A stretch of 44,382 bases of DNA from Thermomicrobiales bacterium. Its GTDB lineage: Bacteria; Chloroflexota; Chloroflexia; Thermomicrobiales; UBA6265. Both the position numbers and the translations under genes were made by a program. The notes under the pieces were generated by a model. That model searched no databases. It was given only the letters and a program-made list of their open reading frames with translations, and was not told the origin of the DNA. Shown piece after piece: positions 10,373 through 44,382 of the stretch. The stretch spans positions 1 through 44,382 of the forward strand of contig JAPXRQ010000003.1 in NCBI GenBank assembly GCA_033813515.1. Reading direction: 5' to 3'. Position 1 is the stretch's first letter, and every line of letters begins with the position of its first letter.

Positions 10373-10408
10373 CCTGCACCGACCCTGGAGCTTCGTCGAA
10401 CCGGGTAA

Positions 10409-11462: not shown

Positions 11463-11487
11463 CACGAACCAGACAGACTCGAAGCAC

Positions 11488-11534
11488 CGGTGGGTGATGG
11501 AATGAGCAATCGTTCCCGCACCCACCGTTTTTTT
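11488..11534 (+). terminator. Rho-independent terminator after paralog 3
   Basis: Arms cggtgggtg / cacccaccg with a 22-nt loop, followed by seven T. Confidence 0.7.
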
Positions 11535-11546
11535 CACGCGGAGTTA

Positions 11547-11575
11547 TTGACGCTCTGTAACAACCCCAGTACGAT
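11547..11575 (+). promoter_or_regulatory. Candidate promoter TTGACG-N17-TACGAT
   Basis: Read directly, upstream of paralog 4. Confidence 0.4.
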
Positions 11576-11668
11576 TTCGAACGGTTCTCGATCTCCCGAT
11601 CAATGGTGATGGTCCGCTCCGCGGCGGATCGAGTTGTGTGTGTTTGCCGGATAGGGCAATGGAAGGCG

Positions 11669-12565
11669 ATGGGTTTGGACAATCAGCAATTTGATCGATT
11701 GGCCCGCATGTTGGGCAGACGGCAATCTCGCCGCAATGCGATCACGGTCATCGCCGGCGCAGCTGCTGTTGCCGCTGTTCCTGCCTCGCGCGCTCGTGCC
11801 GGCAATGAGGTCTGCCTTCTTGCCTGCCCAGACACAACCTTCAGCTACGTGTCCGACGGTACGTGCGAGATTGCTGCCGACTACATCCTGCCAACTCCGA
11901 ACGCCTTTTGCGAGACCGATCCCAACATCTTTTGTGACACCGCAGTTGGAGATCCTCTGGGACTCGGTGAGCACCTGATCTCCTGCTACATCCCTGGCCA
12001 GGAATCCTCCGACTGTTCCTTCTACTACTACGTCTATGACAACAATCCCGACTCCCTCATTTGTCCGGAAGACGTCACCATGACGGTCGATGGCCCGACG
12101 GCAGTTACCTGGGATTCCCCATGGTGGGGCACGGCCTGCACAACCTGGCTTGATACCTGGATCTGCGATCACAACAGTGGCGATGTCTTCCCGATTGGCA
12201 CCACGACAGTTACCTGCACCCCGGATTTCCAGCCATCGGGGAAGGGTCCGGACAACTGCGTGTTCAACATCACGCTCAATCAAACCGTTCCGACTGCCAC
12301 AGCGACCGAGCCGCCCCAGGCCGGACCAACTTCCGTCCCGACCGAGGTTCCCGCAACTGAAGTGCCGACAGCGGTCGATCCGACCTCCATCCCGGCTGAT
12401 CCAACTGCCACCACCGCTCCCGTCACCCAGCTGCCCAACACCGGTGCTGGCTCGAACGGATCCGGTGCGGCCAGCAAGCTGATCCCGGTCGCCGCTGTCG
12501 GCGCCGGTGCAGCCCTCCTCGCCCGCCTCGGCCTCCGCAAGAGCACTGCAGACGCCGCCGAGTAG
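11669..12565 (+). CDS. HYR-domain LPNTG surface protein (paralog 4)
   Basis: ATG at 11669 after GGAAGG gives MGLDNQQFDRLARMLGRRQSRRNAI. LICPEDVTMTVDGPTAVTWDSP...CVFNITL, then QLPNTGAGSNGSGAASKLIPVAAVGAGAALLARLGLRK. Confidence 0.8.
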   Translation: MGLDNQQFDRLARMLGRRQSRRNAITVIAGAAAVAAVPASRARAGNEVCLLACPDTTFSYVSDGTCEIAADYILPTPNAFCETDPNIFCDTAVGDPLGLGEHLISCYIPGQESSDCSFYYYVYDNNPDSLICPEDVTMTVDGPTAVTWDSPWWGTACTTWLDTWICDHNSGDVFPIGTTTVTCTPDFQPSGKGPDNCVFNITLNQTVPTATATEPPQAGPTSVPTEVPATEVPTAVDPTSIPADPTATTAPVTQLPNTGAGSNGSGAASKLIPVAAVGAGAALLARLGLRKSTADAAE

Positions 12566-25982: not shown

Positions 25983-26292
25983 GAAGGCCACCTCTTGCCG
26001 TGTGTGCCTGTAGTCGCTCAATTGTATGGGTGCTTGTACAGGTGTTGTCGCTGTCCGCCCAATCCCGGCACTGGCAGGATAGGGAGCGGTTCGAATCCGG
26101 ATGATGCGGAGTTGGGCGCCGAATGGGTCGGATCGGGGTGAATCGGCCACAGACGGAATCTGACTCCGGATCGACCGGATACCCAATTGCCAGCCCCCTC
26201 AGAAGCAGGATCACGATCAACAGCGCCGCCCGGGCGTGCTGTTCGGATCCCGCGCGGGCTGGTCTGGTTGCTCACATGACAGAGAGGACACC

Positions 26293-27963
26293 ATGCGTTT
26301 TGTTCAGATGTGTGTCGTGCTGGCGTTACTTGGCGTTTCCGCCTTGACCAGCCTGGCCACCGTTTCTGCCGCCAATTCCTGCACGATCGGCGGCATCAAA
26401 TACACCGTCACGATTAGCGGCTCCGGCACAATCAACGGCACTAACAATGCCGATGTCATCGCCGGCTCCAGTCTCGACGACAAGATCTTTGGCGGCGAAG
26501 GCAACGATGTCATTTGCGGCAACGGGGGCGCCGATACCATCGAAGGCGGCTCAGGCAATGACCTGATCAGTGGCGGCACCAACCGGGACTCCATCAAGGG
26601 CGATCTCGATTCCGACCGCATCTATGGAGGCGATTCCGATGACAGCCTTGATGGTGGCGACGACATCGATTACATCTTCGGCGAGGCCGGCAACGACACT
26701 CTGGTCGGCAACTTCGGCGATGATCGCCTCTATGGCGGAATCGGCAACGACCGTGTGTACGGCCGCACCGGCTTCGATTATCTGTACGGGGAGGATGGCG
26801 ACGACTACCTCTCCGGGGCCAGCGACAGCGATCTTCTCTCGGGTGGGCCAGGCAATGACACTCTGACCGATACCACCGGCGGCGTCTATGCCCAGGGTGG
26901 ACCGGGGAACGACATTATCACCGGCAGCACCGAAGAGAAGAATGCCCTCTATGGCAACGAGGGGAACGATGTCCTCGTTGCCCAGTCTCAATCGGTCGTC
27001 TTCGGCGGACCGGGGAATGATGATCTGACCGGCAGCGCTGAGGATGATTACCTGATCGGCGACGACGATGCCCCGGTGGAAGCAAGTGCAACCTTCTCAT
27101 CCGCCGCCGAAGGGAGCGATGGTAATGATGTTCTTCGCGGTGGTGCCGGCAACGACAAACTTCTCGGCAACGGCGGCGATGATCGCCTGGCCGGAGAGGA
27201 TGGCGACGATCGTCTCGATGGCCAGGATGGCAACGATACGTTGACGGGTGGTATCGGAAGTGACCTCCTCAATGGTGATGCCGGACTCGATCGCATCTAT
27301 GGTCAGGATGGCGATGACACCATCGATGGCGGATCCGATGCTGATCAGATCTCGGGCTCAACCGGTGATGACGATATCTACGGCAACAATGGAAGCGATG
27401 TCATCGATGGCGGCGCGGGTGCTGATTCAATCTCGGGCGACAGCGGCGATGATCAGATTCATGGTGGAACCGGAGACGATGAAATCTTCGGCGGAACTGG
27501 CGCCAATGTGATCTTTGGCGGTCCGAACGATGATGTCATTCAGGGCGGCAAGTCCATTGACCAGATTGATGGCGGCGCCGGTAACGACACTATCGACGGG
27601 TATGACGGTAACGACCTTCTTCTCGGCGGAGAATCCGGCATCGATACGATTGTCGGCGGCGATGGGGACGATCTGATCGCCGGCGGAACCGAAAACGACA
27701 TCATCAATGGTGGCTACGGCAATGACACCATCAATGGTGAACTCGGCGATGACAAGATCAACGGTGATACCGGCACCGACAAGATCCACGGGAACGATGG
27801 CAACGATGTTCTCCAGGGATCGGATGGTGAGAACGATCTGGTCTACGGTGATGCCGGCAACGACAAACTCGATGGCGGAGAAGGTCTCGGCGACTACTGC
27901 TCCGGCGGAACCGGCTCCGATGCCGCCGATCCCAATTGCGAAACAACCAACAGCATTCCATAG
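26293..27963 (+). CDS. Secreted calcium-binding repeat protein (RTX-like), paralog of 1581..3266
   Basis: ATG at 26293 after AGAGAGGA. Signal peptide MRFVQMCVVLALLGVSALTSLATVSA. The same VTISGSGTINGT entry motif and GGxGxD repeats, and the same C-terminal DYCSGG...C-E-T ending. Confidence 0.85.
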   Translation: MRFVQMCVVLALLGVSALTSLATVSAANSCTIGGIKYTVTISGSGTINGTNNADVIAGSSLDDKIFGGEGNDVICGNGGADTIEGGSGNDLISGGTNRDSIKGDLDSDRIYGGDSDDSLDGGDDIDYIFGEAGNDTLVGNFGDDRLYGGIGNDRVYGRTGFDYLYGEDGDDYLSGASDSDLLSGGPGNDTLTDTTGGVYAQGGPGNDIITGSTEEKNALYGNEGNDVLVAQSQSVVFGGPGNDDLTGSAEDDYLIGDDDAPVEASATFSSAAEGSDGNDVLRGGAGNDKLLGNGGDDRLAGEDGDDRLDGQDGNDTLTGGIGSDLLNGDAGLDRIYGQDGDDTIDGGSDADQISGSTGDDDIYGNNGSDVIDGGAGADSISGDSGDDQIHGGTGDDEIFGGTGANVIFGGPNDDVIQGGKSIDQIDGGAGNDTIDGYDGNDLLLGGESGIDTIVGGDGDDLIAGGTENDIINGGYGNDTINGELGDDKINGDTGTDKIHGNDGNDVLQGSDGENDLVYGDAGNDKLDGGEGLGDYCSGGTGSDAADPNCETTNSIP

Positions 27964-28118: not shown

Positions 28119-28679
28119 ATGGTGGCGGTTACGGGCAACATGGTGGCACCAGGCAAATTACGCCGGTTCGGGAAAGCAACGGATCAGGACCGCGAGCGCG
28201 CCGCCTTCCTGTCCGAAATGCTTCCCCGCATCTACGGCTACATTCTGCTCCGGGTCAATCGCGATCCAGGTATCGCGGAGGATCTGACCCAGGAAACCCT
28301 GCTTGCCTATACCCGGCAGCAGCAATCCGGTGTTGCCATCGCCAATCCCACGGCCATGCTCTTCGGGATCGCCCGGCATAAGGTGATCGATTGGTATCGG
28401 ACCCGCGTCATGCTCACCGTCGATGCGGACGAGACGCTCGGGGTCATTGATCCGGTCGATGATCTCGACCGGGTTCTGCAGCGGGATGAACTGCTCCGCT
28501 ATCTCGATCAACTCCCACCCGGGCAGCGCATGGTCCTCATCCTACATTACGCCGATGGCCTCAGTGCCGCCGAAATCGCCGCGCATCTCGGGAAGACCCG
28601 GGATGCCGTCGAATCGCTCCTCGCACGTGGCCGGCGTGCCATGCGTCAACTCGCCAGCAATCAGGGTGAAGCACGATGA
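28119..28679 (+). CDS. ECF-type sigma factor (sigma 4)
   Basis: ATG at 28119 after GGAGGA. IYGYILLRVNRDPGIAEDLTQETLL and LILHYADGLSAAEIAAHLGKTRDAVESLLARGRR. The track ORF starts at TTG 28107. Confidence 0.9.
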   Translation: MVAVTGNMVAPGKLRRFGKATDQDRERAAFLSEMLPRIYGYILLRVNRDPGIAEDLTQETLLAYTRQQQSGVAIANPTAMLFGIARHKVIDWYRTRVMLTVDADETLGVIDPVDDLDRVLQRDELLRYLDQLPPGQRMVLILHYADGLSAAEIAAHLGKTRDAVESLLARGRRAMRQLASNQGEAR

Positions 28680-30283
28680 CCAACAACGATCAGAACCTGC
28701 GCGATTCCTTCCGCTCTTTCGACCAGCCCGCGCATCCCCCGTCCGCATTGGCCAGCTCACTCGGCCTGGAAACTCCAGTCCATCGCCGATCAACCTGGGC
28801 AATCTGGACTGCCGCGGCTGCTGCCCTACTGATCCTGCTCGGCGCAGCTGCCATGCTCCTGAATACCCAATCTCCCGACTCCCGGTCGCAAGATGTAATT
28901 GCCGGGCAAGTGATTGCCGCTCCAGGTGGAACGCCAGTCGCCAGTCCATCTCCCACGCATGACTCTTCTGCCGTCATGTTTGGTGGCACTGCTGCTCAAA
29001 CCATCAGCTACCCCGGACTAGCTCCGGATCCCGCCAATCTTCAGAAGCTGTGGGAAACCGCAGACAACGTGATTGGCGATCCCATGTTTTACGGGGATGC
29101 GCTCTACGTGCTCGGGTATCCGGAAGGCGATCAGGATTTCGACACGTCTCTCACGGCCTACGATGCCGCCACTGGCACATTGCGCTGGCAGACGAATGTG
29201 GCCAGCGGACAATTCATGGCCATCGATCAAAACGGAATCTACGTCGCCATCACAGCCGAAACCAACATGCACTCATTCGCCCGATTGGATGCCGCTTCCG
29301 GGCAAGTCATCTGGCAAACACAGGAATCTGTCCCCAATAGCAATCTGCTTTCCGATGTCCTGTTGGTCAGCGACAACACGCTTGTCGTTGTCCATGGCAA
29401 TCAGACGCTACTCGCCTTCGACAGTGCAACGGGCGTCAAAACCTGGGAGTGGCATGCCGCTGGTGCTGGCGCGATCGACTGCACCTATCTCCCGTGCGGA
29501 GCGACTCCAGCGATTCGCGACGGCCAGGTTTATCTGCTCGATTGGTCCAGTAATCAACTGGTCGCGCTCGATCTTGCCACCGGCACCGATCGCTGGAAAG
29601 CACCATTCCTTTCCGATGCCGATTACGCAGATGCAATTACCGCCAGTGCAACCCTGACCGCGGCAGGACGGGATTCAGGTGGGATCTCGTCAGATCAGGT
29701 GCCGTTCTTCCGCTTCTACCAACTTTCCGCAACTGCATACGGACCCGTCCTGATTGAGTTCAACTGGCAGGATCCGCAGAACTACCCAACAGTCATCCAT
29801 CTCTACACTGCGAAAGACGGCGCTTTGGCCTGGAACCGAACCATGGCAATCTCGACCTGGACTCAGTTCGCCATCAGTGAGACCACTCTCTACGCCGCAA
29901 CCCAAAGTACGGCAGAAGGAGCAAAACCGACTCTCGCATTGATTGATCTCGCAAGTGGCACGGATCTCTCAAGTCACGAAATCGATCTTGATCGCGTTCA
30001 CTGGTCGCAGATGATCTACCTTCCACAGGCAAACATGCTTATCACCGGTACCAACGCCGCAACTGGCTCATCTTCGACTCTCTCACGAATTCCGATCATT
30101 GGCTCGTGGTTCGGGAGCAATGACTCCGAAGCGACCATCTGGCTGATCGACCCGACGACACTGGAGGCACGGGGCAAGGCAACATTCAAGAACTGCTATG
30201 TTGCCAGCACCTTTTCTCAATCCAGTCAGATCGTCTGCCAAAGCACGAGCGGCAAGGGCTTCGCCGTCTACGGCACTCCGTAA
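28676..30283 (+). CDS. Membrane-anchored single PQQ-like beta-propeller protein, putative anti-sigma/sensor partner (paralog 4)
   Basis: 535 aa. TM helix TWAIWTAAAAALLILLGAAAMLL and one ectodomain module (LTAYDAATGTLRWQ, FARLDAASGQVIWQ, LLAFDSATGVKTWE, LVALDLATGTDRWK). ATGA overlap with sigma 4. Confidence 0.75.
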   Translation: MTNNDQNLRDSFRSFDQPAHPPSALASSLGLETPVHRRSTWAIWTAAAAALLILLGAAAMLLNTQSPDSRSQDVIAGQVIAAPGGTPVASPSPTHDSSAVMFGGTAAQTISYPGLAPDPANLQKLWETADNVIGDPMFYGDALYVLGYPEGDQDFDTSLTAYDAATGTLRWQTNVASGQFMAIDQNGIYVAITAETNMHSFARLDAASGQVIWQTQESVPNSNLLSDVLLVSDNTLVVVHGNQTLLAFDSATGVKTWEWHAAGAGAIDCTYLPCGATPAIRDGQVYLLDWSSNQLVALDLATGTDRWKAPFLSDADYADAITASATLTAAGRDSGGISSDQVPFFRFYQLSATAYGPVLIEFNWQDPQNYPTVIHLYTAKDGALAWNRTMAISTWTQFAISETTLYAATQSTAEGAKPTLALIDLASGTDLSSHEIDLDRVHWSQMIYLPQANMLITGTNAATGSSSTLSRIPIIGSWFGSNDSEATIWLIDPTTLEARGKATFKNCYVASTFSQSSQIVCQSTSGKGFAVYGTP

Positions 30284-31456: not shown

Positions 31457-34400
31457 TTACGTCTCGATCCGGAGGGTGACGATCTCGAACGGCTTGAGGT
31501 CGATGGTGGCTGTCTGGCCGTTCTCGGAGAGTGAGACAGTCGCGCCTTCCAGCGGATCCTCAAGCAGATCAACCCGACTGACAGCACTCGCTGGTTTGGC
31601 AAAACTCAGCTTCGTTAGCCCGCGTCGACCATGCGGCTCGTACACCCGCAGGATCATCCCGTTACCATTGAATGCCGGCTTCAACGCCCCCAGGCCAACC
31701 TCAAGCCCGCCAACCGTCACAAATCCCTCGCTATCAGTTGTCTCCGGATTAGCCTGCGCCACGATTAGCGGACTGTTCAAGGCAGCAGCCTCAGCCACAA
31801 CATCGGAATCGGTCCAGTCGCCAGCATGCGGATACAGGCTGTAGGTGAACTTCTGAGACCCCTCATCGGCCAGCCAATCCGGATACATCGGCCCGCGAAC
31901 CAATGACATCGAGAGCACATTGTCTTTGGCGGCATGACCGTACTTGCCATTGTTGAGCAGCGACACCCCATAGCCTGGCTCCGAGATATCGACCCAGCGA
32001 TGCGCTCCGACCTCGAATCTGGCCTGCTCAAATGAGGTGTTCCGGTGCGTCGCCCGCCGGGACGCGCCATACATCGTCTCGAACGTTGCCTCGTGACTGC
32101 GGATCGCCATCGGGAAGTTGGTCCGCAGCAGAACCTGCCGCTCATGCCAATCGATCTCGGTCTCGATATCCAGCCGCATCGAACCAGCCGTCAGTCGATA
32201 GGTCTGGACGATCGTCGAGTCCCGATACCTCCGCTCTACCCGGACCGAGGCACGCAAAGGTCCGGATTCAGTAACGGTGATCGCATCAACTGTGGTCAGG
32301 GGATCCGGACAGCGATCGTAGGTTTCATCAACATCCCAGGCATCCCACGATCGCGGCTTGTCCAGATAGGCAATGAGTTGATTGCCAGGACCGGACAAGA
32401 CATCGCGGTTCACTCGTTTGTCATGCACCTGGCCAATCGTGCCATCGGCAGCAATGGTTACCCGCAGGTGGTCATTGCTTAGGACTGCTCCCCCATCGTT
32501 ACTGCTTTGCGCATGGACCGGCGAAGTCAACATCGGCTTGCCGTGTGCACTTGCCCCGAGAGTGACAGTCCGCCACCCAAGACCCGGTACCCGTGTTTCA
32601 TCAGCACCGATCAACATCCCGCCATCAACCATCTGGGTCGAAACCGGTGTGCCATCGCTGAGAGCGACCGCGGGGTCTGTTACATCCGGCAGGAAGGCAA
32701 TCAGTGGCCGCTCAGAAATACCCGGGTTGGCAATGATCCGGCCATTACCTGTCCCGGCAATAGTTGCTACCGCCTCGTCGCGTATTCCTTCGACTGTCGC
32801 AATCGCGGCGGTCATTTCACGATGCGTATCCTCATAGACCTCATGAATGGAGGATCCCGGCAGGATGTCGTGGAACTGGTTCAGCAGCAGTGTCTGCCAA
32901 CTTGTCTGAATCGTTTCAGCCGGATAGGTAAAGCCGTTGGCCAGCGCCAGGGTGCCAAATGCCTCTGCCTCGACCAGCCGCTGCTCCAGCGCCCGATTCT
33001 GGAACTTGACTTGACTCTGTGTGGTCAATGTGCCGCGGTGCAGTTCCAGGTAAAGCTCACCGATGTATTTCGGCAGGGTTGACCGATCAGGCAGATTGGC
33101 AAAAAACTCGCTGACCGATCCCATTCGCAGCCTGGGAAGCACCGGGAAATCCTTGATCCGCGCGTAGTTCTCCAGCATTTTCTCGCTTGGGCCGCCGGCG
33201 CCATCACCCCACCCAAACGCCAGCAGTGTCTCCCCGTGCTTTTCCTTGCCCCGGAAATGGCGCCAGGTGCCGAGCGTATCCAGCGGTACGATGTTGCCGT
33301 TGTATCCCTCGCCCGGATTCAGGAATGTGTGCGCAGTCACCTGACTGCCATCGATCCCTTCCCAGACGAAAAGATCGGCCGGGAATTGGTTGACTTCGTT
33401 CCAGTTGACCTTGATCGTGAAGAACCCGGTGATCCCACCCAGCTTCAGCAGCTGCGGCATCCCGGCCGAGAAACCAAAGACATCCGGCAACCAGGCTACA
33501 GTGTGCCGCTTGCCAAAGGTGCGCTCGAAATACTGTTGCCCTTCAATAATCTGCCTGGCCAGTGCTTCACCACCAGTGACCATGCAGTCCGGTTCGAGCC
33601 ACATGCCGCCGATCGGTTCCCAGCGACCCTCGGCCACGCGCTCCTTGATCCGCTCGAGCAACGCAGGATCGTCTTCTTCCATCCACTTGTAGGCCTGGGC
33701 GGAGGACTGGTTGAAAACGAAATCGGGATACTGATCCATCAGGTTGATGACGGTCGAAAAAGTCCGCCGGGTCTTGCGCCGTGTTTCCGCAACCGGCCAC
33801 AACCAGGCCAGATCAATGTGCGCATGCCCGGTCAGGACCAGCGATCCGATCGGCGGGTACTTCTCGCGGACAGCAGCCAGCCTCTCCTCGAATGTGGCTA
33901 ATGCTCGATTGACTGCTTCCACCGCGGCATCTGGCAACGGCCGCAGGGTGGAAGGCGCGGGCGGCAGACTCCAGGTGGGGTTGGTTGGCCGCGCGGCATC
34001 AATCGCCTGCGGAACCCAGTTGCTCGGAACAGCCTGCGTTCCGCTTCCCATGCCGTTGTGATAGCCAAGCACATAGCGGGTCAGCATCGTCTCGGTATCG
34101 GACGGCCAGCCATCGGCAAGTTCATCCAACGCCGCCTCGGCCACACCCAGCAACTGCGGAACGACTTCGTTCCCATCCAGTTCGATGCAGGCATCGCGCA
34201 GATTGGTCAGATCCCGCTCCAGCGCCCGGACCTCGCGCTGGGGAATGACAAAGTGCGCCCGCTCGATTCGCGGCTCGGTGATATTGCTGCCGAAGATCCC
34301 CTTGGGCACCGCTTCGGCTGTGATGGTGATCGTTTCACCTCCTGCCGCTGATTCAGTGATCGGAAAGCGGTGATGCATCGGATTGAGTCCGGCCTGGAAC

Positions 34401-34687
34401 CCGGTGCTGAGCTGAATAAACGCCTCACCACCCAGCCACAGCTCCAGTTCAACCGGAGAGCCAGCCCACGCGGCCGGAATTGTCCCGGTCGCGGTCAGGG
34501 TCACCGGCAGGGTATGGACCGGCCAGAAATCGCCCAGATGCAACTCGGTGCTGGCGCCATCCGGAGCAGTGAAGGTCCAGGTATCGATGGTCGCTTCGCG
34601 AGCATTGCGCCAGGCCCGGAGTTCCTCCAGCCGGCGCAGAATCCGCTCAATACGGCGAGTGTCGAGGGAATGTTGAATATCGCGCAA
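31457..34687 (-). CDS. Glycoside hydrolase family 38 alpha-mannosidase
   Basis: 1076 aa. LTGHAHIDLAWLWP and QFHDILPGSSI are GH38 hallmarks. TTG start 6 nt after GAAGGAG. Confidence 0.9.
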   Translation of the reverse strand: MRDIQHSLDTRRIERILRRLEELRAWRNAREATIDTWTFTAPDGASTELHLGDFWPVHTLPVTLTATGTIPAAWAGSPVELELWLGGEAFIQLSTGFQAGLNPMHHRFPITESAAGGETITITAEAVPKGIFGSNITEPRIERAHFVIPQREVRALERDLTNLRDACIELDGNEVVPQLLGVAEAALDELADGWPSDTETMLTRYVLGYHNGMGSGTQAVPSNWVPQAIDAARPTNPTWSLPPAPSTLRPLPDAAVEAVNRALATFEERLAAVREKYPPIGSLVLTGHAHIDLAWLWPVAETRRKTRRTFSTVINLMDQYPDFVFNQSSAQAYKWMEEDDPALLERIKERVAEGRWEPIGGMWLEPDCMVTGGEALARQIIEGQQYFERTFGKRHTVAWLPDVFGFSAGMPQLLKLGGITGFFTIKVNWNEVNQFPADLFVWEGIDGSQVTAHTFLNPGEGYNGNIVPLDTLGTWRHFRGKEKHGETLLAFGWGDGAGGPSEKMLENYARIKDFPVLPRLRMGSVSEFFANLPDRSTLPKYIGELYLELHRGTLTTQSQVKFQNRALEQRLVEAEAFGTLALANGFTYPAETIQTSWQTLLLNQFHDILPGSSIHEVYEDTHREMTAAIATVEGIRDEAVATIAGTGNGRIIANPGISERPLIAFLPDVTDPAVALSDGTPVSTQMVDGGMLIGADETRVPGLGWRTVTLGASAHGKPMLTSPVHAQSSNDGGAVLSNDHLRVTIAADGTIGQVHDKRVNRDVLSGPGNQLIAYLDKPRSWDAWDVDETYDRCPDPLTTVDAITVTESGPLRASVRVERRYRDSTIVQTYRLTAGSMRLDIETEIDWHERQVLLRTNFPMAIRSHEATFETMYGASRRATHRNTSFEQARFEVGAHRWVDISEPGYGVSLLNNGKYGHAAKDNVLSMSLVRGPMYPDWLADEGSQKFTYSLYPHAGDWTDSDVVAEAAALNSPLIVAQANPETTDSEGFVTVGGLEVGLGALKPAFNGNGMILRVYEPHGRRGLTKLSFAKPASAVSRVDLLEDPLEGATVSLSENGQTATIDLKPFEIVTLRIET

Positions 34688-36182: not shown

Positions 36183-37166
36183 ATGGATGTGATGACCCTT
36201 TCCCAACTCGCCGAACAGACGGCTATCAGCCCTGAAACTCTGGTTGCGTACCGCGACACCTGGTTGCTGTATCTGCCAGTCATCCGCGTTGGACAGGCGG
36301 TTGGCTTCCTTCCCGAAGCCCTCGAAGTCGTCCGCCATATCCACGCCCAAACGACCGCGGGTTTGACACGTCAGGCGATCGAGACCGATCTCGCCGAGCG
36401 CTATCCCGTCTCGGTCATTGCCTCGCAACCAATCGCGTCGGCGCAGCCTGCATCCGGTTCCGGTTCTTCAGCCATTGCCCCGGTCAGCGGTCTGCTGCAG
36501 GATGTTGATCACAAGTACCAGGCGCTTGCCTACGAGATCTCCCAGATCCGCGAGGACCTCGGCAAGACCGCTTCGGAAGAGCGCGCCCTCCAGATCCAGC
36601 AGATGATCACCGGGGTCGCCCGCAAGACCAACAAGCACCTCGAGCCGATCGCCTCCGAGCTGGCCCAGATTCGTCAGGCCGTTGGTGTCCTCGCCAATCG
36701 CGTCGAACGCCAGCACACCGCCACCCTCCAGGATCGGACCGATCTCTCCACCACCATCGATTCCCTGGCCGCGCGCCTGCCCGATCATCAGCCCGGTATT
36801 ACCGATGAACTGAATGCCGTCCGCCGCGAAATCGCCGGATTGCGCTCCTCCCTGCCGGAAGGCGAGGTGAGTGACACTGGCCAACTGCAACAACTGGCCG
36901 GCGATGTTCACACCCTGCAGCAGCAAATCGGAGATCTGCGGCGCGATCGGGGACAACTGGTCTCGCTCATGTCAGCGCTGCAGGACAACCTGGCGCAGCT
37001 CTACATCGAACTGGCCGATGCCCGCCAAACCCGCAACGTACCCGCTCCGATCGAAACCATTCCAATGATCAATGCCGATCTTCAGCCATTCGATCCGGAC
37101 ACCGCCGCCAGCACAGGCACCGACGGACTCCGCACGCCACGCCGTTTAGGCCATCAAGGTCGCTAA
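36183..37166 (+). CDS. MerR-like N-terminal HTH protein with long coiled-coil/Gln-rich C-terminal region
   Basis: 327 aa. MTLSQLAEQTAISPETLVAYRD looks like an HTH. The rest is heptad-like (QIRQAVGVLANRVERQH, LQQLAGDVHTLQQQIGDLRRDRGQL). The function call is weak. Confidence 0.5.
   Translation: MDVMTLSQLAEQTAISPETLVAYRDTWLLYLPVIRVGQAVGFLPEALEVVRHIHAQTTAGLTRQAIETDLAERYPVSVIASQPIASAQPASGSGSSAIAPVSGLLQDVDHKYQALAYEISQIREDLGKTASEERALQIQQMITGVARKTNKHLEPIASELAQIRQAVGVLANRVERQHTATLQDRTDLSTTIDSLAARLPDHQPGITDELNAVRREIAGLRSSLPEGEVSDTGQLQQLAGDVHTLQQQIGDLRRDRGQLVSLMSALQDNLAQLYIELADARQTRNVPAPIETIPMINADLQPFDPDTAASTGTDGLRTPRRLGHQGR
37073..37126 (+). repeat. Direct repeat, left copy (inside the 3' end of the 36183..37166 CDS)
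   Basis: 49 of 54 positions are identical to 40360..40413 by position-by-position comparison. Confidence 0.9.
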
Positions 37167-40100
37167 CGGTCTTTGAAGCCGAATGCTTCATCTAGCTGCT
37201 AAGTCAGCTTAAGCTAACTTACCGCCCTGCCCACTCGACTACACTTTACGGTCACTTGCTTCGGACTCCCTCAGGTCCGCGAACCACCGTGACACACGTA
37301 TTGACATCTCGTCGGGGCGAAGTTAGGAACCGAAGTGACAAAGCATCGAGAACTCATTGCTTATGTCCGATTTCAACTAGATCAACTCTCCGCCCACAAC
37401 GCGCAACACGAATTCGAGCACATGTGTCGACATCTCGCTCGCCTGCGAGTGTGCAGCAATATCCTTCCAGCTACTGGGCCGGTTGCCGCGCGCGGTGACC
37501 AAGGGAGAGATGCAGAATCTTTCCGATCCTACCTAGCGAACAGCCCGGCGCTCGCGTCCTCGACATTTGTCGGACTCCTATCCGATCGTCCGATTGCTTT
37601 CGCTGTGACTCTTCAAAAGAAAGAGAACAACCTTAAAGGAAAACTCAAGGCCGATATTGCCAAAATCCAAAAAAGCGGAGTGCCCGTAAGCGAAATTCAT
37701 TATTTTTGCGCAGACGACCTCGATGTGGGTACTCGGCACACCATTCAAGCTTGGGCAAACGATACACATGGCGTGACGGTGCAGATTTACGATGGTCAAG
37801 CGATCGCGGAATTCCTCTGTGCTAGAGACACATTCTGGATCGCAACCGAATACTTGCAGGTTCCAAGCGAGATGTACCCTGACAGTCTGAGCGACGGACG
37901 GGACGACTGGTACCACACGCTGTTCCAATCCTGGCAAAACTTTCCGCAACAGCCGCTAACTTTCGCGACTTTTGCGGAGGTCAAAAGTGCGCTGCGGCAC
38001 TGTACTTTCACTCCTGACCACCAGAATGACCTTCTATTCTGGATGAGGCAACTCGAACCATTTCTATCGGAGGACGTACCTACCATACTGCGATACAGAA
38101 CAATGTACGAATTGGCCGTTGCCTCGCTCCGGGGATTAGGCACAATGGAAGGCAACGATCAACGACTGTACGAATACTTCGAGTCAACCTTGAGTTCTGA
38201 AACATACGCATCACTAGAAGATGCAGGAGTTCTTATCTCCTATTGTCTTGGCGCAATCCAACATCACGCAACACTTCTTCATAACGACACAGTTGTTAAG
38301 TGGCGAGATAATCTTGTAAAAATACTTGACAATCACCTCTCGACCGAACTTGCCGTTGGACCTAGATGCGACCTACTTTCTCTCCTTGGCTTTGTCGTAT
38401 GCTTCAGCCAAGGATATGGAATTCCTATTGAGGACCGCTCATCTACCACTATTTGGCTTGATCTCGTAACACATTTGGACAAAGCACCGCTTTTCCCTGT
38501 AGACAGGCTAGCTAATCTGTTGACCATTGCGGTTCCCCTTCTCTCTGACGAACCCAGGTTCGATGAACTGACAAAGCGCGTTGACCAATTAGTCGGTGAG
38601 CGGGCCGGACAGGCTGCTGCGGCTGAGAAGTGTCGAGATCGAGCAATGGCTTTCTTTGAGCAAGGACAATTGCTCCGCGCCATCACAGAACTCCAAGAGG
38701 CGAAGGTAAAATGGTTTACGGACGAAACTCTTTTAGGGTCAGTTCTCGCCATGCTATTCATCGCCCAGTGCTATCACGAGCTAAATCTTCATTATGCCGC
38801 CAAGTATTACGCGATGGCTGCTGCTTGGATTGCGATCCAATCAGAGCGTCAAACTCTCAGGGACAAGATATGGGTGGCGCTCACATTCGCTGCTGAATGC
38901 GACTATCTGCTCGGGAACTGGCGCGGCTATCTGCTGCTTTCGGACCTTGGCATGAAGAGCCATTGGTGGCTCGCTCGCAGGGCAGGCGATTACGAGGAAC
39001 ATCCCAACCTCGACAGAGTCTTTTACCACGCATCGGTTTGCCATGCGGTCGCTGAGCGGATCGACAGTGCATTATCTGCAGCCGTGTGGGACATGATCTC
39101 TGAATGGGGCTTGACAGAGGAGATTGAGGCAATCATGCCTTACGCACGCGAAATGCTCGGCAGCGGAAGCATTGACGAGATGTTAACCCTCACAGGGAAC
39201 CAACTGAGCGGACGACCATTCGCGGATGTGGCCAACGAGCGCCAGGTAGCGTGGGAGGCGCTGGGCATCACATGGCGAGTGCATTGGCAAAATGACTTGG
39301 CCACGAACAATGCTGCCGAAGAGTTTGTAGCGACACTACAAATAGCACTAACTGACTTTGCCAAACACGATTTATTACTCATAAAGACAGAAGTAGAGAT
39401 CGAGATTTTGATCGGCGACGTGACGTCACCAGTCGTGGATGATGCCTCATCGAACAGTGGCCGGCTTTGGCGGGTGCAATTGCCAACTTCCGATACGCAG
39501 AATGACAATAAAGAGCATCCCAAATCAGTCGATCTCCTTGGTGTCACGATCTATATCCTGCGCGAAGCCTCCTTATTGCCGAATGATGAATTCATGATGG
39601 CATTCGAGGAAGTAACGAAGGCAGGGATTACATCGAATGTGTTCGTTGGACGAGCGTATAGTGGTTTGCTCGATCAGTTCTCCAGCGCTGCGTCTCCGCT
39701 TCACACCCTCGGAATGCCAGAGAGGCTTTTGGTTGCCGATAGACCAACTTCGGTACCTCCGCATCCGGAGCTGGCTTGGCGAGACAATCTTGCTCCCGGA
39801 TATAGCCAAATTGAGTCTCATGAAGCTATTACGCGACGTTACCAACGCACATCCCAGAAAATCCCTGTGACTCTTGCACGACTTGCCGGTGATGCGCGAT
39901 TTCATCTAACTCGTCAGACTCTTGTGAACGATGGATGGAAAGACTGGCATTTGCTCTTAGCTGTATTGAATCTAACTCTGAACGTACGTCTACATGCTCG
40001 TCACGGTCAAATCTTACTTGCCAACGATAGTTTGGATTATGCCCACCATGCAATAAAGGAAGTGGTTGACGACTTAGAGTTAGAAAGCTCGGCCCCAATT

Positions 40101-40359
40101 GACCTAGATCGATTCACCGTCGACGAGCTCCGGCATATGATGGATATCGGGATGATTAATGTACTTAACACTTGGGGGCTGGAAATCCACCAAATCACGC
40201 CTGACCTCCCTGCAATTCGCACCTTCCTTGCTCAGCGTTACAATTTCTGGATTGACGATGTTGAGCATGAAGATCCCTTTCGGACAGATCAACCGCCAAG
40301 TATCTTGGTCGTTACGAGATAAAGCGAAGGTCATTTCGTGGTCATAGCGATTCACTCGT
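37167..40359. mobile_element. Lower-GC inserted islet bounded by direct repeats; no integrase or transposase seen
   Basis: Spot GC counts are 24/60 (37621-37680) and 31/60 (38341-38400). The flanks give 39/60 (36601-36660) and 37/60 (41401-41460). It is bounded by the 54-bp direct repeats. Confidence 0.55.
37335..40322 (+). CDS. Large hypothetical protein: N-terminal Mrr/PD-(D/E)xK-like nuclease motif plus helical/TPR-like body; candidate defense-type effector
   Basis: 995-aa uninterrupted ORF with a GTG start 6 nt after AGGA. The N-terminus has FEHMCRHLARL...GDQGRDAESF...IAFAVTLQKK, compared with Mrr-type FExL...GDGGID...QxK. A TPR-like stretch is AMAFFEQGQLLRAITELQEAKVKW...IAQCYHELNLHYAAKYYAMAA. 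No Walker A motif was seen. Confidence 0.6.
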   Translation: MTKHRELIAYVRFQLDQLSAHNAQHEFEHMCRHLARLRVCSNILPATGPVAARGDQGRDAESFRSYLANSPALASSTFVGLLSDRPIAFAVTLQKKENNLKGKLKADIAKIQKSGVPVSEIHYFCADDLDVGTRHTIQAWANDTHGVTVQIYDGQAIAEFLCARDTFWIATEYLQVPSEMYPDSLSDGRDDWYHTLFQSWQNFPQQPLTFATFAEVKSALRHCTFTPDHQNDLLFWMRQLEPFLSEDVPTILRYRTMYELAVASLRGLGTMEGNDQRLYEYFESTLSSETYASLEDAGVLISYCLGAIQHHATLLHNDTVVKWRDNLVKILDNHLSTELAVGPRCDLLSLLGFVVCFSQGYGIPIEDRSSTTIWLDLVTHLDKAPLFPVDRLANLLTIAVPLLSDEPRFDELTKRVDQLVGERAGQAAAAEKCRDRAMAFFEQGQLLRAITELQEAKVKWFTDETLLGSVLAMLFIAQCYHELNLHYAAKYYAMAAAWIAIQSERQTLRDKIWVALTFAAECDYLLGNWRGYLLLSDLGMKSHWWLARRAGDYEEHPNLDRVFYHASVCHAVAERIDSALSAAVWDMISEWGLTEEIEAIMPYAREMLGSGSIDEMLTLTGNQLSGRPFADVANERQVAWEALGITWRVHWQNDLATNNAAEEFVATLQIALTDFAKHDLLLIKTEVEIEILIGDVTSPVVDDASSNSGRLWRVQLPTSDTQNDNKEHPKSVDLLGVTIYILREASLLPNDEFMMAFEEVTKAGITSNVFVGRAYSGLLDQFSSAASPLHTLGMPERLLVADRPTSVPPHPELAWRDNLAPGYSQIESHEAITRRYQRTSQKIPVTLARLAGDARFHLTRQTLVNDGWKDWHLLLAVLNLTLNVRLHARHGQILLANDSLDYAHHAIKEVVDDLELESSAPIDLDRFTVDELRHMMDIGMINVLNTWGLEIHQITPDLPAIRTFLAQRYNFWIDDVEHEDPFRTDQPPSILVVTR

Positions 40360-40413
40360 TGCCGATCTCCAGCCATTCGATCCGGACACCGCCGCTGGCA
40401 CCGGAACCGACGG
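40360..40413 (+). repeat. Direct repeat, right copy (relic 3' end of the host gene, with its own stop TAG at 40436-40438)
   Basis: In the host-gene frame it encodes ADLQPFDPDTAAGTGTDG HRRCLGR then stop. The left copy encodes ADLQPFDPDTAASTGTDG LRTPRRLGHQGR then stop. Confidence 0.9.
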
Positions 40414-40451
40414 CCACCGCCGCTGCCTGGGCCGGTAGGATGTCGAGGGTT

Positions 40452-40472
40452 GGATGTTGAACGTTGAACGTT
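40452..40472. repeat. Period-7 tandem array (GGATGTT GAACGTT GAACGTT)
   Basis: Read directly, between the relic stop (40438) and the hairpin at 40501. Confidence 0.8.
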
Positions 40473-40500
40473 CGGGACTGCGCTTCAATTCACTGAAATC

Positions 40501-40534
40501 AGAATGGCCGAGGGGTACTTCCCTCGGCCATTCT
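40501..40534. terminator. Hairpin (13-bp stem), likely terminator for convergent transcription
   Basis: Arms agaatggccgagg / cctcggccattct with an 8-nt loop. Flanking T-tracts are weak. Confidence 0.5.
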
Positions 40535-40555
40535 CATTGCCAGGAACCGGGCGCT

Positions 40556-40590
40556 CGGAACTCGGAACTCGGAACTTCAAGCTCGAAGCT
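40556..40590. repeat. Period-7 tandem array (CGGAACT x3, TCAAGCT, CGAAGCT)
   Basis: Read directly. It abuts the stop codon (40590-40592) of the small minus-strand ORF. Confidence 0.85.
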
Positions 40591-40769
40591 CAGCCCCTCG
40601 TGCCGAGGATCGATCGCCGCTGCCACTCCTCGGTCCGGAACTCCCGTTCCGCCTTGGCCAGCAACGCCACATCTCGATCGGTCCGCTCGCCGTCCATCAC
40701 CAGGTTCGGACAGATCGCTGAGGAGCGCCCCGGGAGACGCAGCAGTTGCCGCATGCGCCCAAATGCCAT
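40590..40769 (-). CDS. Hypothetical 59-aa protein (second gene of a small two-ORF unit)
   Basis: An internal ATG at 40769 lies 12 nt after the stop of the upstream small ORF. No recognisable motif. Coding status is uncertain. Confidence 0.3.
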   Translation of the reverse strand: MAFGRMRQLLRLPGRSSAICPNLVMDGERTDRDVALLAKAEREFRTEEWQRRSILGTRG

Positions 40770-40780
40770 CCCGTACCCCC

Positions 40781-40960
40781 TTACCCGCGGAACCCGAACT
40801 GCGAGGCAACCAGGTCCCAATGCATGTCCTGCGCCTGCCGATTGCGCTTCACAATCTGCTCGATTTCCTTATCAGTCGCCCCGTCGATCGCGGCGACAGC
40901 AGCGGGAAGGCTCTTCTCAATCTCCGCTTGCGTTCGAGTGCGTGTCGGTCTGAACTTCAT
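40781..40960 (-). CDS. Hypothetical 59-aa protein
   Basis: The ATG at 40960 is preceded by AAGGGA. The sequence MKFRPTRTRTQAEIEKSLPAAVAAIDGATDKEIEQIVKRNRQ has no family I can name. Confidence 0.35.
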   Translation of the reverse strand: MKFRPTRTRTQAEIEKSLPAAVAAIDGATDKEIEQIVKRNRQAQDMHWDLVASQFGFRG

Positions 40961-41024
40961 TGTCTGTTCCCTTTCAGTAACCACTATCCTTTACCAACTG
41001 GTTACATGGCTAGTCTATCGCCTC

Positions 41025-41052
41025 TTGTGTAACTTGTCAAGCCAGGTATAAT
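41025..41052 (+). promoter_or_regulatory. Candidate promoter TTGTGT-N16-TATAAT for the CGNR gene, overlapped by inverted repeats
   Basis: Perfect -10 TATAAT at 41047..41052. TGTAAC (41028) and GTTACA (41054) bracket it. Confidence 0.45.
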
Positions 41053-41099
41053 GGTTACAGAATTGTCAACACGCCCCGACCCAAAGGAGGTCGATCCGG

Positions 41100-41732
41100 G
41101 TGACAACCCAACCAGATTCCTGGCACCTCGAAGAGGGCCACCTCGCAATCGATTTCATCAATACCGCCTATCTCCAGGTCGATCAGTCCGATCACTGGGG
41201 CTACCGAACGGTGGAGGAGAGCCTGCACGCACTCTCCGATCTGGCTGCCTGGGCCGACCAGCGCGGCATCCTCTCGCCCACCCTCGCGGAATCGCTACGA
41301 ACCAACTCCAACCAAACCGATCCGCACCTCTCCGAACTGATTACCCTCCGCGAATCCATGCGCCGCATCTTCCGCGCCCACATTGGCAGCGGCCCAGACG
41401 CCAGCACCATGCTCACCGAGATCAATCAGCGGCTCCTGCCATCCCTGGAAGGCACAGTCCTCAGACCATCGGAAACCGGATTCGTTCCTGATCGGGTAAC
41501 TGCCAAAACCTCCTCCGCGCAGGAAGCAATCAACCAGATCACCTGGGCCATCGCGCTCTCCACCGAAGCCCTCCTGACCGATCCCAAAGAGCTCGCCCTG
41601 ATCAAGGAATGCCCCGCTGAGGACTGCGGCTACCTCTTCCGCGATTCCTCCCGCGGACGCCGGCGTTGGTGCAGCATGGCCACCTGCGGTAACCGGGCCA
41701 AGGTCCACCGCTTCCGCGAAAAGACGGCCTGA
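41100..41732 (+). CDS. CGNR zinc-finger (ABATE domain) protein
   Basis: 210 aa. GTG start 9 nt after AAAGGAGG. The C-terminal CPAEDCGYLFRDSSRGRRRWCSMATCGNRAKVHRFR is the CGNR zinc-finger signature. Confidence 0.85.
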   Translation: MTTQPDSWHLEEGHLAIDFINTAYLQVDQSDHWGYRTVEESLHALSDLAAWADQRGILSPTLAESLRTNSNQTDPHLSELITLRESMRRIFRAHIGSGPDASTMLTEINQRLLPSLEGTVLRPSETGFVPDRVTAKTSSAQEAINQITWAIALSTEALLTDPKELALIKECPAEDCGYLFRDSSRGRRRWCSMATCGNRAKVHRFREKTA

Positions 41733-41840
41733 GGCGTAACCACCACCTGCCCACCGACGACTGACCGACAACCATCAGCCAACAGAAGAGCCGGAGGATT
41801 GCTCCCCCGGCTCTTCTCATTCGTGTTCTGTGATCGATCC

Positions 41841-44382
41841 CTACGGCTCCGCGACGTTCACCATCACGATGTCCGAGTGACCGCACTCGCACTGGATTCC
41901 GTTATAGGTCACCGGTCCGCTCGGCGGGCTGTACCCGTCGTTCGTGCCCGGATACTCCGTCACCGTGATCGAGCTGGTCGCCAGGCCGATCCGAACCTGA
42001 ACCGTACCGTTGGCCGTGGTCTGAACACCGGTGATCGGCGTCATGCCCGGACCATTGATATCGAAGGTCACCCCGGCCGGCGCCATGGTGCAGCCCGGCG
42101 GCAGGATTCCGGCCACGATATCGCCCGTATTGATGGTCTCTGGCGCGGTCTCGCAGTTGATCTTGTAGATCTTGACATCCGTGCCTGGCGGCGGGGTGTC
42201 ATCCAGCGTATTGACGATCGTCACCTCACCGTAGCCACCAGCCGGAACTTCCACGTCATAGGTCGTGTCGTCGCCGATGTAGCCAGCCGGAGCCTGCGCC
42301 TCGGTCACGTGGTACGTGCCCGGGATCAGGTGGACCAGGTAGGTCTCGCCCAGGGTTGGGTTGTTATCTTCCCAGCCCGGTCCGGCACCCGTGTCCTGAT
42401 CGCAGATCCAGTTGTCGTAATCCAGCGGGCCGGTGATGGAGAAGCAGGCATCCGCCAGCAGCACTCCGAAGTCATCGACCTTGTGAATCCGCAACTGTCC
42501 GTAGAGCGAGTTCTGGATCACGATCTCGGCCGCATTTCCGCCAGCCGTCACGTTCACCTGGTAGACCGACAGGCTGATCGCGTACCCGGACGGAGCCGTG
42601 TTCTCGACGATCGTGTAGATGCCTGGCTCCAACCCGTCCATGCGCAGCTCGCCATCGGACGGATTGTCATCGTTCGCTCCGTTGTCACAGAGGTTCCCGC
42701 TGAAGCCAGGTCCAGTCACGGTGAAGCAGGCGCCCGCAAGCGGAGCATTGTCGTCGTCGACCTTGTGGATCAGGAGCGAGCCGGAGGTCGTCTGATTGAC
42801 GATTGTCACCTCGGCCAGCACCGCATCCAGCGGGAAGACGTAGAGCGTGTAGATCTGCGGGTCCATGTTGTAGCCAGCCGGAGCCGAAGACTCCTGGACG
42901 GTGTACTCACCCGGGCGCAGATTGTTCAGCCGCAGCTCGCCATACGAGTTGTTGGCATCACCACTCTGGTTATCGCAGAGCGTTCCGCTGTAGCCAGGTC
43001 CATCGACCGCGAAGCATGCGCCACCCAGCGGATCCTGCTCGCCGTCCACCTTGTGGATGCGCAGGCTTCCCTTCTTGATGACATTGTCGATCGTGATCGC
43101 CACCGCGCCCTGATCGCCAGGAGTCACGACAACGCTGTAGATCGTCGAGTCGAGGTTGTAATCGCTCGGTGCCGCTGTCTCCTGGACCGAGTAGGTCGCC
43201 GGGACAAGATTGTTGATCGCGATCACACCAGGCTGTGATTCAGAGTCGCCAGCCGCACCATCACAGACCGTGGTCGTGAAGCCGCTGCGGAAGACCTTGA
43301 AGCAGGAACCATCCAGGTAATCGTGCGTCTCCGAATCCTTCTTGTGGATGCGCAGGCGGCCCGGCACCGGCGTCGGCGTGTTGGTCGCCGTCGGGGTGAA
43401 GGTCTTGGTTGGCGTGTTCGTCGGCGTGAAGGTCTTGGTCGGTGTGCTCGTCGGCGTGAAGGTCGACGTGGCAGCAACCGTGTTGGTCGGGGTGGCGGTC
43501 GGCGCCGGGATGCAGAGTGCATCGGCCGAAGCTGTACCACCATCCGAGTAGATCGCACGGACACCCAGGCGGCTGTATCCACCGGTGAACTGCTGCAGGT
43601 ACCGATCATTGGTCGACGCAGGCTGGCTACCGGCCGGAAGTGGTGTCTCCGTATCCAGGCCATACAGCGTGTAGATCATCGTCGGGAAGCCCATTTCACG
43701 GTCGACCGCGAACACACCCACGGTGCGGATATCCGGGTTACCGGTGTTGATCGAGCAGCTGATGATCAAGGTGAACTCAGGCAGGCTCGGCGTCGCGGTG
43801 TAGGTCGCCGTCGGCGGAACCGGCGTGTTGCTCGGCGTGAAGGTCTTCGTCGGCGTGTTCGTCGGCGTGAAGGTCTTCGTCGGTGTGTTGCTCGGCGTGA
43901 AGGTCTTCGTTGGAGTGAACGTCGCCGTCGGCGGGACCGGGGTGTTGGTCTTGGTCGGCGTGTTACTCGGCGTGAAGGTATTCGTCGGCAACGGGGTATT
44001 CGTCTTCGTCGGCGTGTTGCTCGGCGTGAAGGTCTTCGTTGGCGTGCTTGTCGGTGGCCGCGGAGTTGCCGTCTTGGTTGGCGTCCTGGTCGCGGTCTTC
44101 GTCGGTGTAGCTGTCGGCGGCCGCGGAGTCGCCGTGTTGGTCTTCGTCGGCGTGTTGCTCGGCGTGAAGGTCTTCGTCGGCGTGTTGGTTGGCGGCGCCG
44201 GGGTGAAGGTCTTCGTCGCGGTGAACGTGGCCGTCGGCAACGGGGTATTCGTCTTTGTCGGCGTGTTGCTCGGCGTGAAGGTCTTCGTTGGAGTGAACGT
44301 CGCCGTCGGCGGGACCGGAGTATTGGTCTTGGTCGGCGTGTTGCTCGGCGTAAACGTGCTCGTCGGCAACGGGGTGTTGGTC
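41841..44382 (-). CDS. Surface protein with Thr/Pro-rich tandem repeats and about 5 SpaA/prealbumin-like (Cna-B-type) domains; N-terminus outside window
   Basis: The frame is open to the window end. The N-terminal part is [17 protein letters not shown] repeats. The C-terminal part has repeated G(S/R)L(R/L)IHKVD...G(A)CF...LxPGxYTVxExxAPxGY modules. No LPxTG at the C-terminus. Confidence 0.8.

Follow-up and report, generated by a model that had tools for sequence, protein, structure and literature searches.

A candidate single-protein immune sensor-nuclease of a previously unnamed family, carried on a single-gene insert in a Thermomicrobiales bacterium

The 995-residue gene and its insert

The window analyzed in this study is a 44,382-nucleotide (nt) stretch of a Thermomicrobiales bacterium genome (contig JAPXRQ010000003.1, positions 1-44,382, forward strand), and the element of interest within it is an open reading frame (ORF) for a protein of 995 amino acids (aa). 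Working from the DNA alone, an earlier reading of the window (hereafter the original prediction) had described this protein as a possible stand-alone defence effector that joins an Mrr-like nuclease motif to a TPR-like body. The ORF was found at the position and on the strand that had been claimed (Table 1), with an AGGAA ribosome-binding site (37325-37329) placed 5 nt before its GTG start. This start was taken to be sound because the N terminus of the protein aligns residue for residue with those of its homologues. Evidence for expression is weak, consisting of contigs from two metatranscriptomes that cover 39276-40079, the last third of the gene, at low depth. A consensus sigma-70 promoter could not be found near the gene, where promoter and terminator scans stayed at background level, and an Rfam search of the insert described below and its flanks gave no match.

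Table 1. Coordinates of the 995-aa gene, its predicted domains and motifs, and the edges of the insert
Feature	Position	Strand	Description
MerR-like coiled-coil gene	36183..37166		Upstream of the insert
Left 61-nt direct repeat	37073..37133	+	In 3' end of MerR-like gene; encodes ...ADLQPFDPDTAASTGTDG; left insert edge
Lower-GC foreign leader of insert	37134..37334	+	Gives the upstream gene a new C-terminal tail and its stop (ends 37166)
995-aa ORF	37335..40322	+	GTG start; full-length member of an unnamed ~980-aa family
Putative N-terminal effector domain, aa 1-185	37335..37889	+	Alpha/beta, restriction-endonuclease-like (model and Foldseek)
F27-E28 in helix 1	37413..37418	+	E28 candidate metal-ligand Glu; each 118/119; invariant in alignments A4 and A6
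N42-ILPATGPVxxGGDQGRDFETF-63	37458..37523	+	Most conserved stretch of the family (column counts, DSSP)
Strand 3 IAFAV-T, then Q94-K95-K96	37593..37622	+	Family consensus IAFAC[ST]
K103-x3-D107	37641..37655	+	Helix after strand 3 (H100-113); 119/119 each
TPR-like alpha-solenoid, aa ~191-621	37905..39197	+	~22 helices (DSSP, Foldseek)
Beta-rich domain, aa ~626-720	39210..39494	+	Strands 635-642, 645-652, 685-694, 700-704, 710-717 (DSSP)
C-terminal helical domain, aa ~725-995	39507..40319	+	Model, conservation
Right 61-nt direct repeat	40360..40420	+	Encodes ADLQPFDPDTAAGTGTDGHRRCLGR, then a stop (40436-40438); right insert edge

The composition of the gene (GC content 0.505, GC at third codon positions, GC3, 0.51) stands apart from that of its flanks (GC 0.595-0.617) and neighbouring genes (GC3 0.67-0.71), and two 61-nt direct repeats, 89% identical and 3287 bp apart, bracket exactly this one gene. 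Both observations bear out the small acquired islet of the original prediction. What is left of the native end of the MerR-like gene lies in the right repeat; the insertion swapped the last ~8 codons of this gene for a new 12-codon tail. Across the left junction (37100-37399) GC falls to 0.547, against 0.60-0.64 just upstream, and it is back to 0.62 at 40400-40699. No integrase is encoded within the 3.3-kb insert, and the geometry fits single-crossover integration of circular DNA into the MerR-like gene at its 3' end. Independent assemblies of metagenomes (activated sludge, anaerobic digesters) contain the left and the right junction alike, which speaks against a chimeric assembly. The unoccupied site was also sought; no empty joint was seen in four metagenome runs, and one scan of metagenome contigs returned the occupied right junction only.

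A second strain, ~5-6% divergent, was observed in one of the runs as contigs at 36668-36941 and 40946-41277 with about half the depth. No variant contig could be placed inside the insert, and this strain may be without it. Flanking direct repeats were considered as a feature of the wider family and rejected, being clear in the window only and weak in two others of the 64 loci inspected (34 nt in L016, 17 nt in L004).

A cross-domain family of hypothetical proteins

Homologues of the 995-aa protein were readily found in a large protein collection, where 365 clusters of ~975-1000 aa share 35-47% identity with it over 97-100% of the query. All 365 are annotated as hypothetical and none carries a precomputed Pfam domain. 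An alignment of 119 family members, over whose columns all residue counts given here were taken, showed a mean column identity of 46%. When one genome per species was scanned, archaeal members were found in Bathyarchaeia and Methanosarcinaceae (Methanosarcina), and members from the candidate phyla radiation (CPR) in Parcubacteria, Roizmanbacteria and Saccharibacteria. The other bacterial members belong to Acidobacteriota, Chloroflexota, Actinomycetota, Alpha- and Betaproteobacteria, Bacteroidota, Ignavibacteria, Verrucomicrobiota and Gemmatimonas. Members were also recorded in Methanobacterium. The family is thus widespread yet patchily distributed, and it crosses domains. Twelve plasmid records were matched by tblastn, and no family member was found among GenBank phages or IMG/VR contigs.

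Attempts to identify the family by sequence were uniformly negative. Searches with the window protein against Pfam (E <= 1), NCBIfam and PDB sequences gave no match, the family profile returned only a noise match (U2AF35) among PDB sequences, and a Pfam search of 62 members at E <= 1 yielded no recurring family and no nuclease family. The defence assignment of the original prediction found no echo in PADLOC-DB 2.0, where no component model matched the window protein and the single hit, CARF_HEPN (E 0.018), is noise. A literature search by accession and by architecture names, of incomplete coverage, found no description of the family.

Two loci carry paralogues in tandem, encoding proteins of 1063 and 1121 aa in an Acidobacteria metagenome-assembled genome (10001-13731 and the next gene) and of 1037 and 1017 aa in Planosporangium. 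The copy in Salmonella enterica Enteritidis (GCA_009060145.1, locus 8001-10953) is split into ORFs of 219 and 718 aa by a stop at an A-run. Free-standing short versions of the N-terminal domain were considered and set aside, as the Salmonella example, the one inspected, is a disrupted full-length gene, and among the others many resemble fragments made by contig ends or frameshifts.

Architecture of the body

The full-length AlphaFold2 model, built from the 119-sequence alignment, reached a mean predicted local-distance difference test score (pLDDT) of 88.3 and a predicted TM-score (pTM) of 0.84. Following an N-terminal domain, it places a TPR-like solenoid, a beta-rich domain and a C-terminal helical domain in one chain (Table 1). 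The original prediction had held the ~850 aa after the N-terminal region to be helical; the ~810 aa that follow the N-terminal domain are indeed mostly helices in the model, and the beta-rich domain had been overlooked. Its TPR-like unit stood at the level of fold and fell at the level of sequence. Foldseek with the full-length model against PDB returned TPR-type solenoids only (LGN/Pins, consensus TPR, Rap proteins, Ski3, OGT), with probability 1.0, weak E values and TM-scores on the target of up to 0.50. By sequence profile, the window protein has no Pfam TPR match, and one of 62 members matches TPR_2 (E 0.19). The description of the body as TPR-like thus holds for the predicted fold only, and the solenoid is presumed to be a sensor or scaffold.

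In the beta-rich domain D631, R636, W647, E662 and Q669 are invariant and a PSNxxRxW motif is conserved. The C-terminal domain carries the invariant residues Y823, Y836, W868-x-D870-W871, D975 and H978, and ends in a WxDDVEHxDPF tail. No relative of either domain was recognized in the full-length searches, in which neither domain was searched alone; by fold they gave TPR-type matches only, and by sequence no match in PDB. As the original prediction had stated, there is no P-loop; Walker A and GK[ST] motifs are absent from the whole protein, as are Pfam matches to AAA, NACHT and STAND families.

The N-terminal domain and its candidate active site

The N-terminal domain (N-domain) was also modelled in isolation from a 62-sequence alignment (pLDDT 91.9, pTM 0.87). 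The order of its helices (H) and strands (b) by DSSP, namely H24-38, b43-45, b60-62, b87-92, H100-113, b120-125, H131-145 and b148-152, is compatible with an alpha-beta-beta-beta-alpha-beta core, with PDB matches at E >= 0.04 and TM <= 0.43. Foldseek against BFVD, a library of predicted viral structures, gave a protein named 'Restriction endonuclease' as top match (E 9.6e-4, probability 1.0, TMq 0.44), and a 'Mrr domain-containing protein' and two further 'Restriction endonuclease' entries each matched with probability 0.99. The PDB list was enriched in RPB5, Mus81, NucS, Hef, FokI, Can2, PspGI, R.BspD6I and FAAP24. Such matches to the restriction-endonuclease fold agree with the original prediction, although every one of those in PDB has E >= 0.04, and on these models the fold assignment is moderately supported.

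The Mrr-like core had originally been read from three peptide strings, all of which are present in the protein: FEHMCRHL (aa 27-34), GDQGRD (aa 54-59) and IAFAVTLQKK (aa 87-96). The first two parts of that core, FE and GDxGxD, proved to be invariant in the family, and the predicted fold is weakly similar; the third, QxK, is not conserved, and no Mrr profile matches. Within the most conserved stretch of the family, N42, G48, P49, V50, G54, D55 and D59 are present in 119/119 members and E61 in 118/119. D59 immediately precedes strand 2 (60-62), the 'PD' position, so that both the acidic residue of helix 1 (E28, 118/119) and the Asp at the start of strand 2 (D59, 119/119) are conserved. Past strand 3, Q94, K95 and K96 occur in 56, 63 and 52 of the 119 members; the invariant residues near this strand are instead S/T92, K103 and D107. 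The window protein carries V91 where 117/119 members have Cys, and it retains all invariant residues. K103 is a possible candidate for a relocated catalytic lysine. The N-domain could accordingly be a strongly diverged Mrr-type domain in which the helix-1 Glu and strand-2 Asp were kept and the lysine possibly moved to the next helix.

A comparison with Mrr_cat (PF04471) illustrates both sides of this reading. Shared are FE in helix 1, G-D-x-G-x-D before strand 2, a hydrophobic strand 3 bearing Cys, and fold matches to proteins named Mrr or restriction endonuclease (probability 0.99-1.0). The family differs from Mrr_cat in a ~24-residue insertion between strands 2 and 3, in A-C-[ST] at the place of QxK, and in the invariant K103/D107 on the following helix. 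At the level of sequence profiles the family fails membership of Mrr_cat, whose Pfam model found no match in 62 members with the cutoff relaxed to E <= 1. Aligning the N-domain profile by hhalign with one Mrr_cat protein and one Cap4 head gave nothing informative.

Two segments, aa 47-59 (37473-37511) and 64-80 (37524-37574), have pLDDT below 50 in the full-length model and 73-84 in the isolated domain. The low values for this most conserved loop could mean that a putative active-site loop takes up alternative conformations when the body is present. An HxxEH string (aa 25-29) was considered as an inverted zincin motif and ruled out, since H29 is not conserved.

Exchange of N-terminal domains

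The strongest functional clue is the modularity of the family. Three of the 12 plasmid records (two from Hymenobacter, one from Fibrella) match over residues ~180-982 only, and these three proteins, together with eight relatives, carry an N-terminal Pfam Cap4 dsDNA endonuclease domain in place of the N-domain (33.8 bits, cutoff 26.2). When the family was aligned with this clade by hhalign, the probability was 100% (E 1e-109, 799 columns), and the match starts at window residue 187, right where the N-domain ends. The two clades therefore share a homologous ~800-aa body, the beta-rich domain included. Like the members of the main family, the Cap4/DUF4297-headed proteins (one of which, WP_139926185.1, NCBI names 'dsDNA nuclease domain-containing protein') are encoded by single genes on mobile DNA, adjoining toxin-antitoxin genes. 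They differ in that the head is unrelated in sequence to the N-domain and similar to LmuA heads, in the small size of the clade (11 clusters found), and in a C-terminal extension. PADLOC matched the Cap4 heads to LmuA models and the body of these proteins to nothing.

Conversely, the N-domain was found at the head of other proteins, including a 1117-aa protein with NACHT and HEAT domains (Bryobacterales genome), P-loop/nSTAND3 proteins of 747-760 aa (Streptomyces) and a 355-aa protein with a helix-turn-helix (HTH) domain. A search of 1.84 billion representatives with its profile gave 1357 clusters (50% identity), and in the best 150 of these 1357 clusters it is always N-terminal. Because it is exchangeable with a known immune nuclease and occupies the effector position of NLR-like proteins, the N-domain behaves like an immune effector, and the 800-aa body like a sensor or regulator.

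Some neighbours of these proteins are recorded here as separate observations. In both Hymenobacter plasmids a 416-aa hypothetical gene precedes the Cap4-headed gene (5960-7210; 3870-5120), and HTH and HipA genes come after it. The 416-aa protein encoded at 5960-7210 has a weak PADLOC match to a type II restriction enzyme model (E 1.5e-5), and such a gene could be a partner within the Cap4-headed clade only. In Streptomyces rishiriensis, a 760-aa protein with the N-domain and a P-loop nucleoside triphosphatase (NTPase) domain (9926-12208) is encoded directly downstream of a bona fide Mrr_cat protein (8249-9211; Pfam E 7e-8).

Genomic context

The flanks of the family were compared by all-versus-all clustering of 1147 ORFs from 64 loci. 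No conserved partner gene emerged, as no neighbour cluster is common beyond single lineages, and the gene is therefore taken to work alone, in keeping with the stand-alone character first proposed for it. Among 110 immediate neighbours were toxin-type genes (three HEPN, and PIN), type I methylase and specificity subunits of restriction-modification systems, LmuB, NERD+UvrD, DpdF/BrxH-like helicases, SngC, IetS-like subtilases and Schlafen/AlbA_2 proteins, alongside mobile-element genes for TrwC relaxase and rve integrases. Further out, another 140 neighbours included two type I restriction-modification sets, McrBC, GmrSD and a C5 methylase, with four transposases, two relaxases and a type IV secretion system coupling protein. 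Among plasmid copies, that of Blastomonas (WP_069052060.1) adjoins ABC-three-component and reverse-transcriptase genes, that of Fibrella adjoins AbiE, and those of Hymenobacter adjoin HipA. The Salmonella Enteritidis copy lies inside an island with Phage_integrase, AlpA, RadC and DUF2787 genes. The contexts are thus variable islands with defence or mobile genes and not housekeeping synteny, as the original prediction had anticipated.

Favoured reading and alternatives

Taken together, these results favour the 995-aa protein being a stand-alone, NTPase-independent, single-protein immune sensor-nuclease of a previously unnamed family, a reading to which we give a probability of roughly 0.55. As part of it, the gene was rather probably acquired horizontally as a single-gene 3.3-kb insert. 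The effector would be the N-domain, most probably a metal-dependent DNA nuclease, with E28, D55/D59/E61 and K103/D107 as candidate catalytic residues. By analogy with Avs and Upx proteins (see below), the 800-aa body formed by the solenoid, beta-rich and C-terminal domains would hold the nuclease in check. Once the body bound a protein or structure derived from an invader, the N-terminal domains would be released or would oligomerize, and their cutting of DNA would halt the propagation of phages or plasmids, possibly through abortive infection. Observed directly are the gene and its family, the architecture, the resemblance in fold, the conserved polar residues, the exchange of effectors, the variable context and the insertion; we infer the trigger, catalysis, oligomerization and defence phenotype from the analogous systems. 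The original prediction of an Mrr-like nuclease with a TPR-like body acting alone in defence was in this way partly supported.

Several results weigh against the favoured reading. The fold similarity of the N-domain is weak, with no PDB match at E <= 1e-3 and TM values of 0.25-0.48, and its best PDB match is the jaw of RPB5 (E 0.04, probability 0.93), which is non-catalytic. Nuclease sequence profiles match none of 62 members, and no PDB sequence is matched either. A conserved (D/E/Q)xK on strand 3 is absent among the 119 members, and catalysis would therefore need a relocated lysine. No PADLOC model matches the body. Ordinary metabolic genes are numerous among the neighbours, and the defence richness of the 250 neighbours was judged by family counts and not against a background. 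That no member turned up in phage and viral collections counts neither for nor against this reading.

The alternative that survives best, though still unlikely, is that the N-domain is a catalytically dead restriction-endonuclease-fold module for binding DNA or protein, and that the whole protein is a scaffold, regulator or sensor signalling elsewhere. It would account for the missing strand-3 motif, the resemblance to RPB5 and the silence of nuclease profiles. Against it, E28, D55, D59, E61, K103 and D107 are invariant or nearly so in 119 very divergent members, as is typical of an active site. The N-domain, moreover, occupies the place of an active-type Cap4 nuclease on a homologous body and takes the N-terminal effector position in NACHT/STAND proteins, and there is no conserved partner gene that could serve as the effector in its stead.

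Slightly less probable again is a selfish or addiction element, in which the gene would encode a homing-like nuclease or a maintenance toxin of plasmids and islands and would not serve host defence. The window itself lends this idea its best argument, a single gene inserted between 61-nt direct repeats without an integrase, and tandem paralogues in two loci and copies on plasmids and islands point the same way. The direct repeats are not a family feature, however, and neither a conserved target site nor a terminal structure was seen. Nor is there a conserved antitoxin-like neighbour, and an 800-aa sensor-like body with Cap4 and NACHT exchange fits immune proteins better.

For the third alternative, we note that K103-x3-D107 is reminiscent of KxxxD in the ERCC4 signature. 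A housekeeping DNA-repair or recombination factor, such as an XPF/Mus81- or NucS-like structure-specific nuclease on a repeat scaffold, is highly improbable despite the fold matches to Mus81, Hef and NucS, given the patchy distribution without conserved synteny, the foreign-GC single-gene insert in the window, the inactivated Salmonella copy, the plasmid-borne members and the failure of ERCC4 and NucS profiles to match any family member (window protein; 62 members).

Relation to Avs and Upx

The closest known parallels to the favoured reading, that of an immune sensor-nuclease, are two groups of large defence proteins. In Avs proteins, Cap4 or Mrr nuclease effectors are joined to TPR sensors, and activation comes about when the nuclease domains assemble (PMC13581612); examples with Mrr-like or Cap4 nuclease effectors are Avs2, Avs3, Avs4 and Avs7 (PMC13581612, PMC13601566). 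Upx (Gao_Upx) senses terminase without an NTPase and carries a divergent PD-(D/E)xK nuclease, which is C-terminal and has E1176 in its ExK motif (PMC13601566).

With Avs, the present family shares an N-terminal, here putative, PD-(D/E)xK-type nuclease effector followed by a large, here presumed, TPR-type sensor in one polypeptide, and exchangeable effectors; its N-domain also occurs on NACHT/STAND proteins, although these are different proteins. Unlike Avs, it has no STAND/NACHT NTPase and no Walker A motif, and so lacks the nucleotide-driven oligomerization switch that defines Avs. Its body adds beta-rich and helical domains without known relatives, and the Avs models of PADLOC show no sequence similarity to the window protein. 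With Upx, it shares a single large NTPase-less protein made of a big sensor and a divergent PD-(D/E)xK-type nuclease (both putative in the present family), a broad and patchy distribution in Bacteria and Archaea, and tandem second copies. In contrast to the arrangement in Upx, the nuclease-like domain is N-terminal here and without ExK, and no PADLOC match suggests homology. Lacking an NTPase, the family is accordingly not Avs, and its reversed domain order and the missing model match set it apart from Upx; as far as architecture can tell, it resembles both in the way it would work.

More tentatively, and with less confidence than we place in the favoured reading, the window protein might be regarded as the founding member of a new class of pattern-recognition immune proteins that work without an NTPase and cross domains, occurring in Bacteria (CPR included), in Archaea and on plasmids. 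Such proteins would pair a conserved 800-aa body with interchangeable N-terminal nucleases, one of them a new Mrr-derived variant in which K103/D107, borne on a helix, stand in for a lost strand-3 QxK. The body would directly sense a conserved phage component, as in Upx and Avs, with an unrelated sensor and without nucleotide-driven oligomerization.

Were the family confirmed as a defence system, it would add a widespread architecture with an unrecognized sensor body (its N-domain profile alone reaching the 1357 clusters noted above) and would be the second example, after Upx, of large single-protein sensor-nucleases without a STAND NTPase. It also extends to Archaea and CPR bacteria, about whose immune repertoires little is known. 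The presence of a new Mrr-like or a Cap4 head on one body, and of the same Mrr-like head on NACHT proteins, amounts to a natural experiment on the coupling of effectors to sensors, and a diverged active site without a strand-3 ExK would widen the known variation of PD-(D/E)xK enzymes. If its role lies outside defence, the family would still be a large, conserved and function-unassigned one that merits a Pfam entry.

Other features of the window

The surroundings of the insert are ordinary chromosome and not a defence island. Genes at 26236-27963, 28676-30283, 31457-34687 and 41841-44369 encode RTX-repeat (17 HemolysinCabind stretches), PQQ-like beta-propeller, GH38 alpha-mannosidase and SpaA-domain surface proteins. 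Downstream of the right repeat, the plus-strand ORFs 40454..41032 and 41051..41491 have no Pfam match. A contig of the right junction from a JGI metagenome is without ~73 nt (window ~40624-40696) between short TCGCCG repeats, a strain-level indel. The metatranscriptome contigs are much deeper at 40708-40958 and 41576-41792 (word depth 26-36) than over the 995-aa gene, and a short minus-strand gene may be a real transcript in this deeply covered region.

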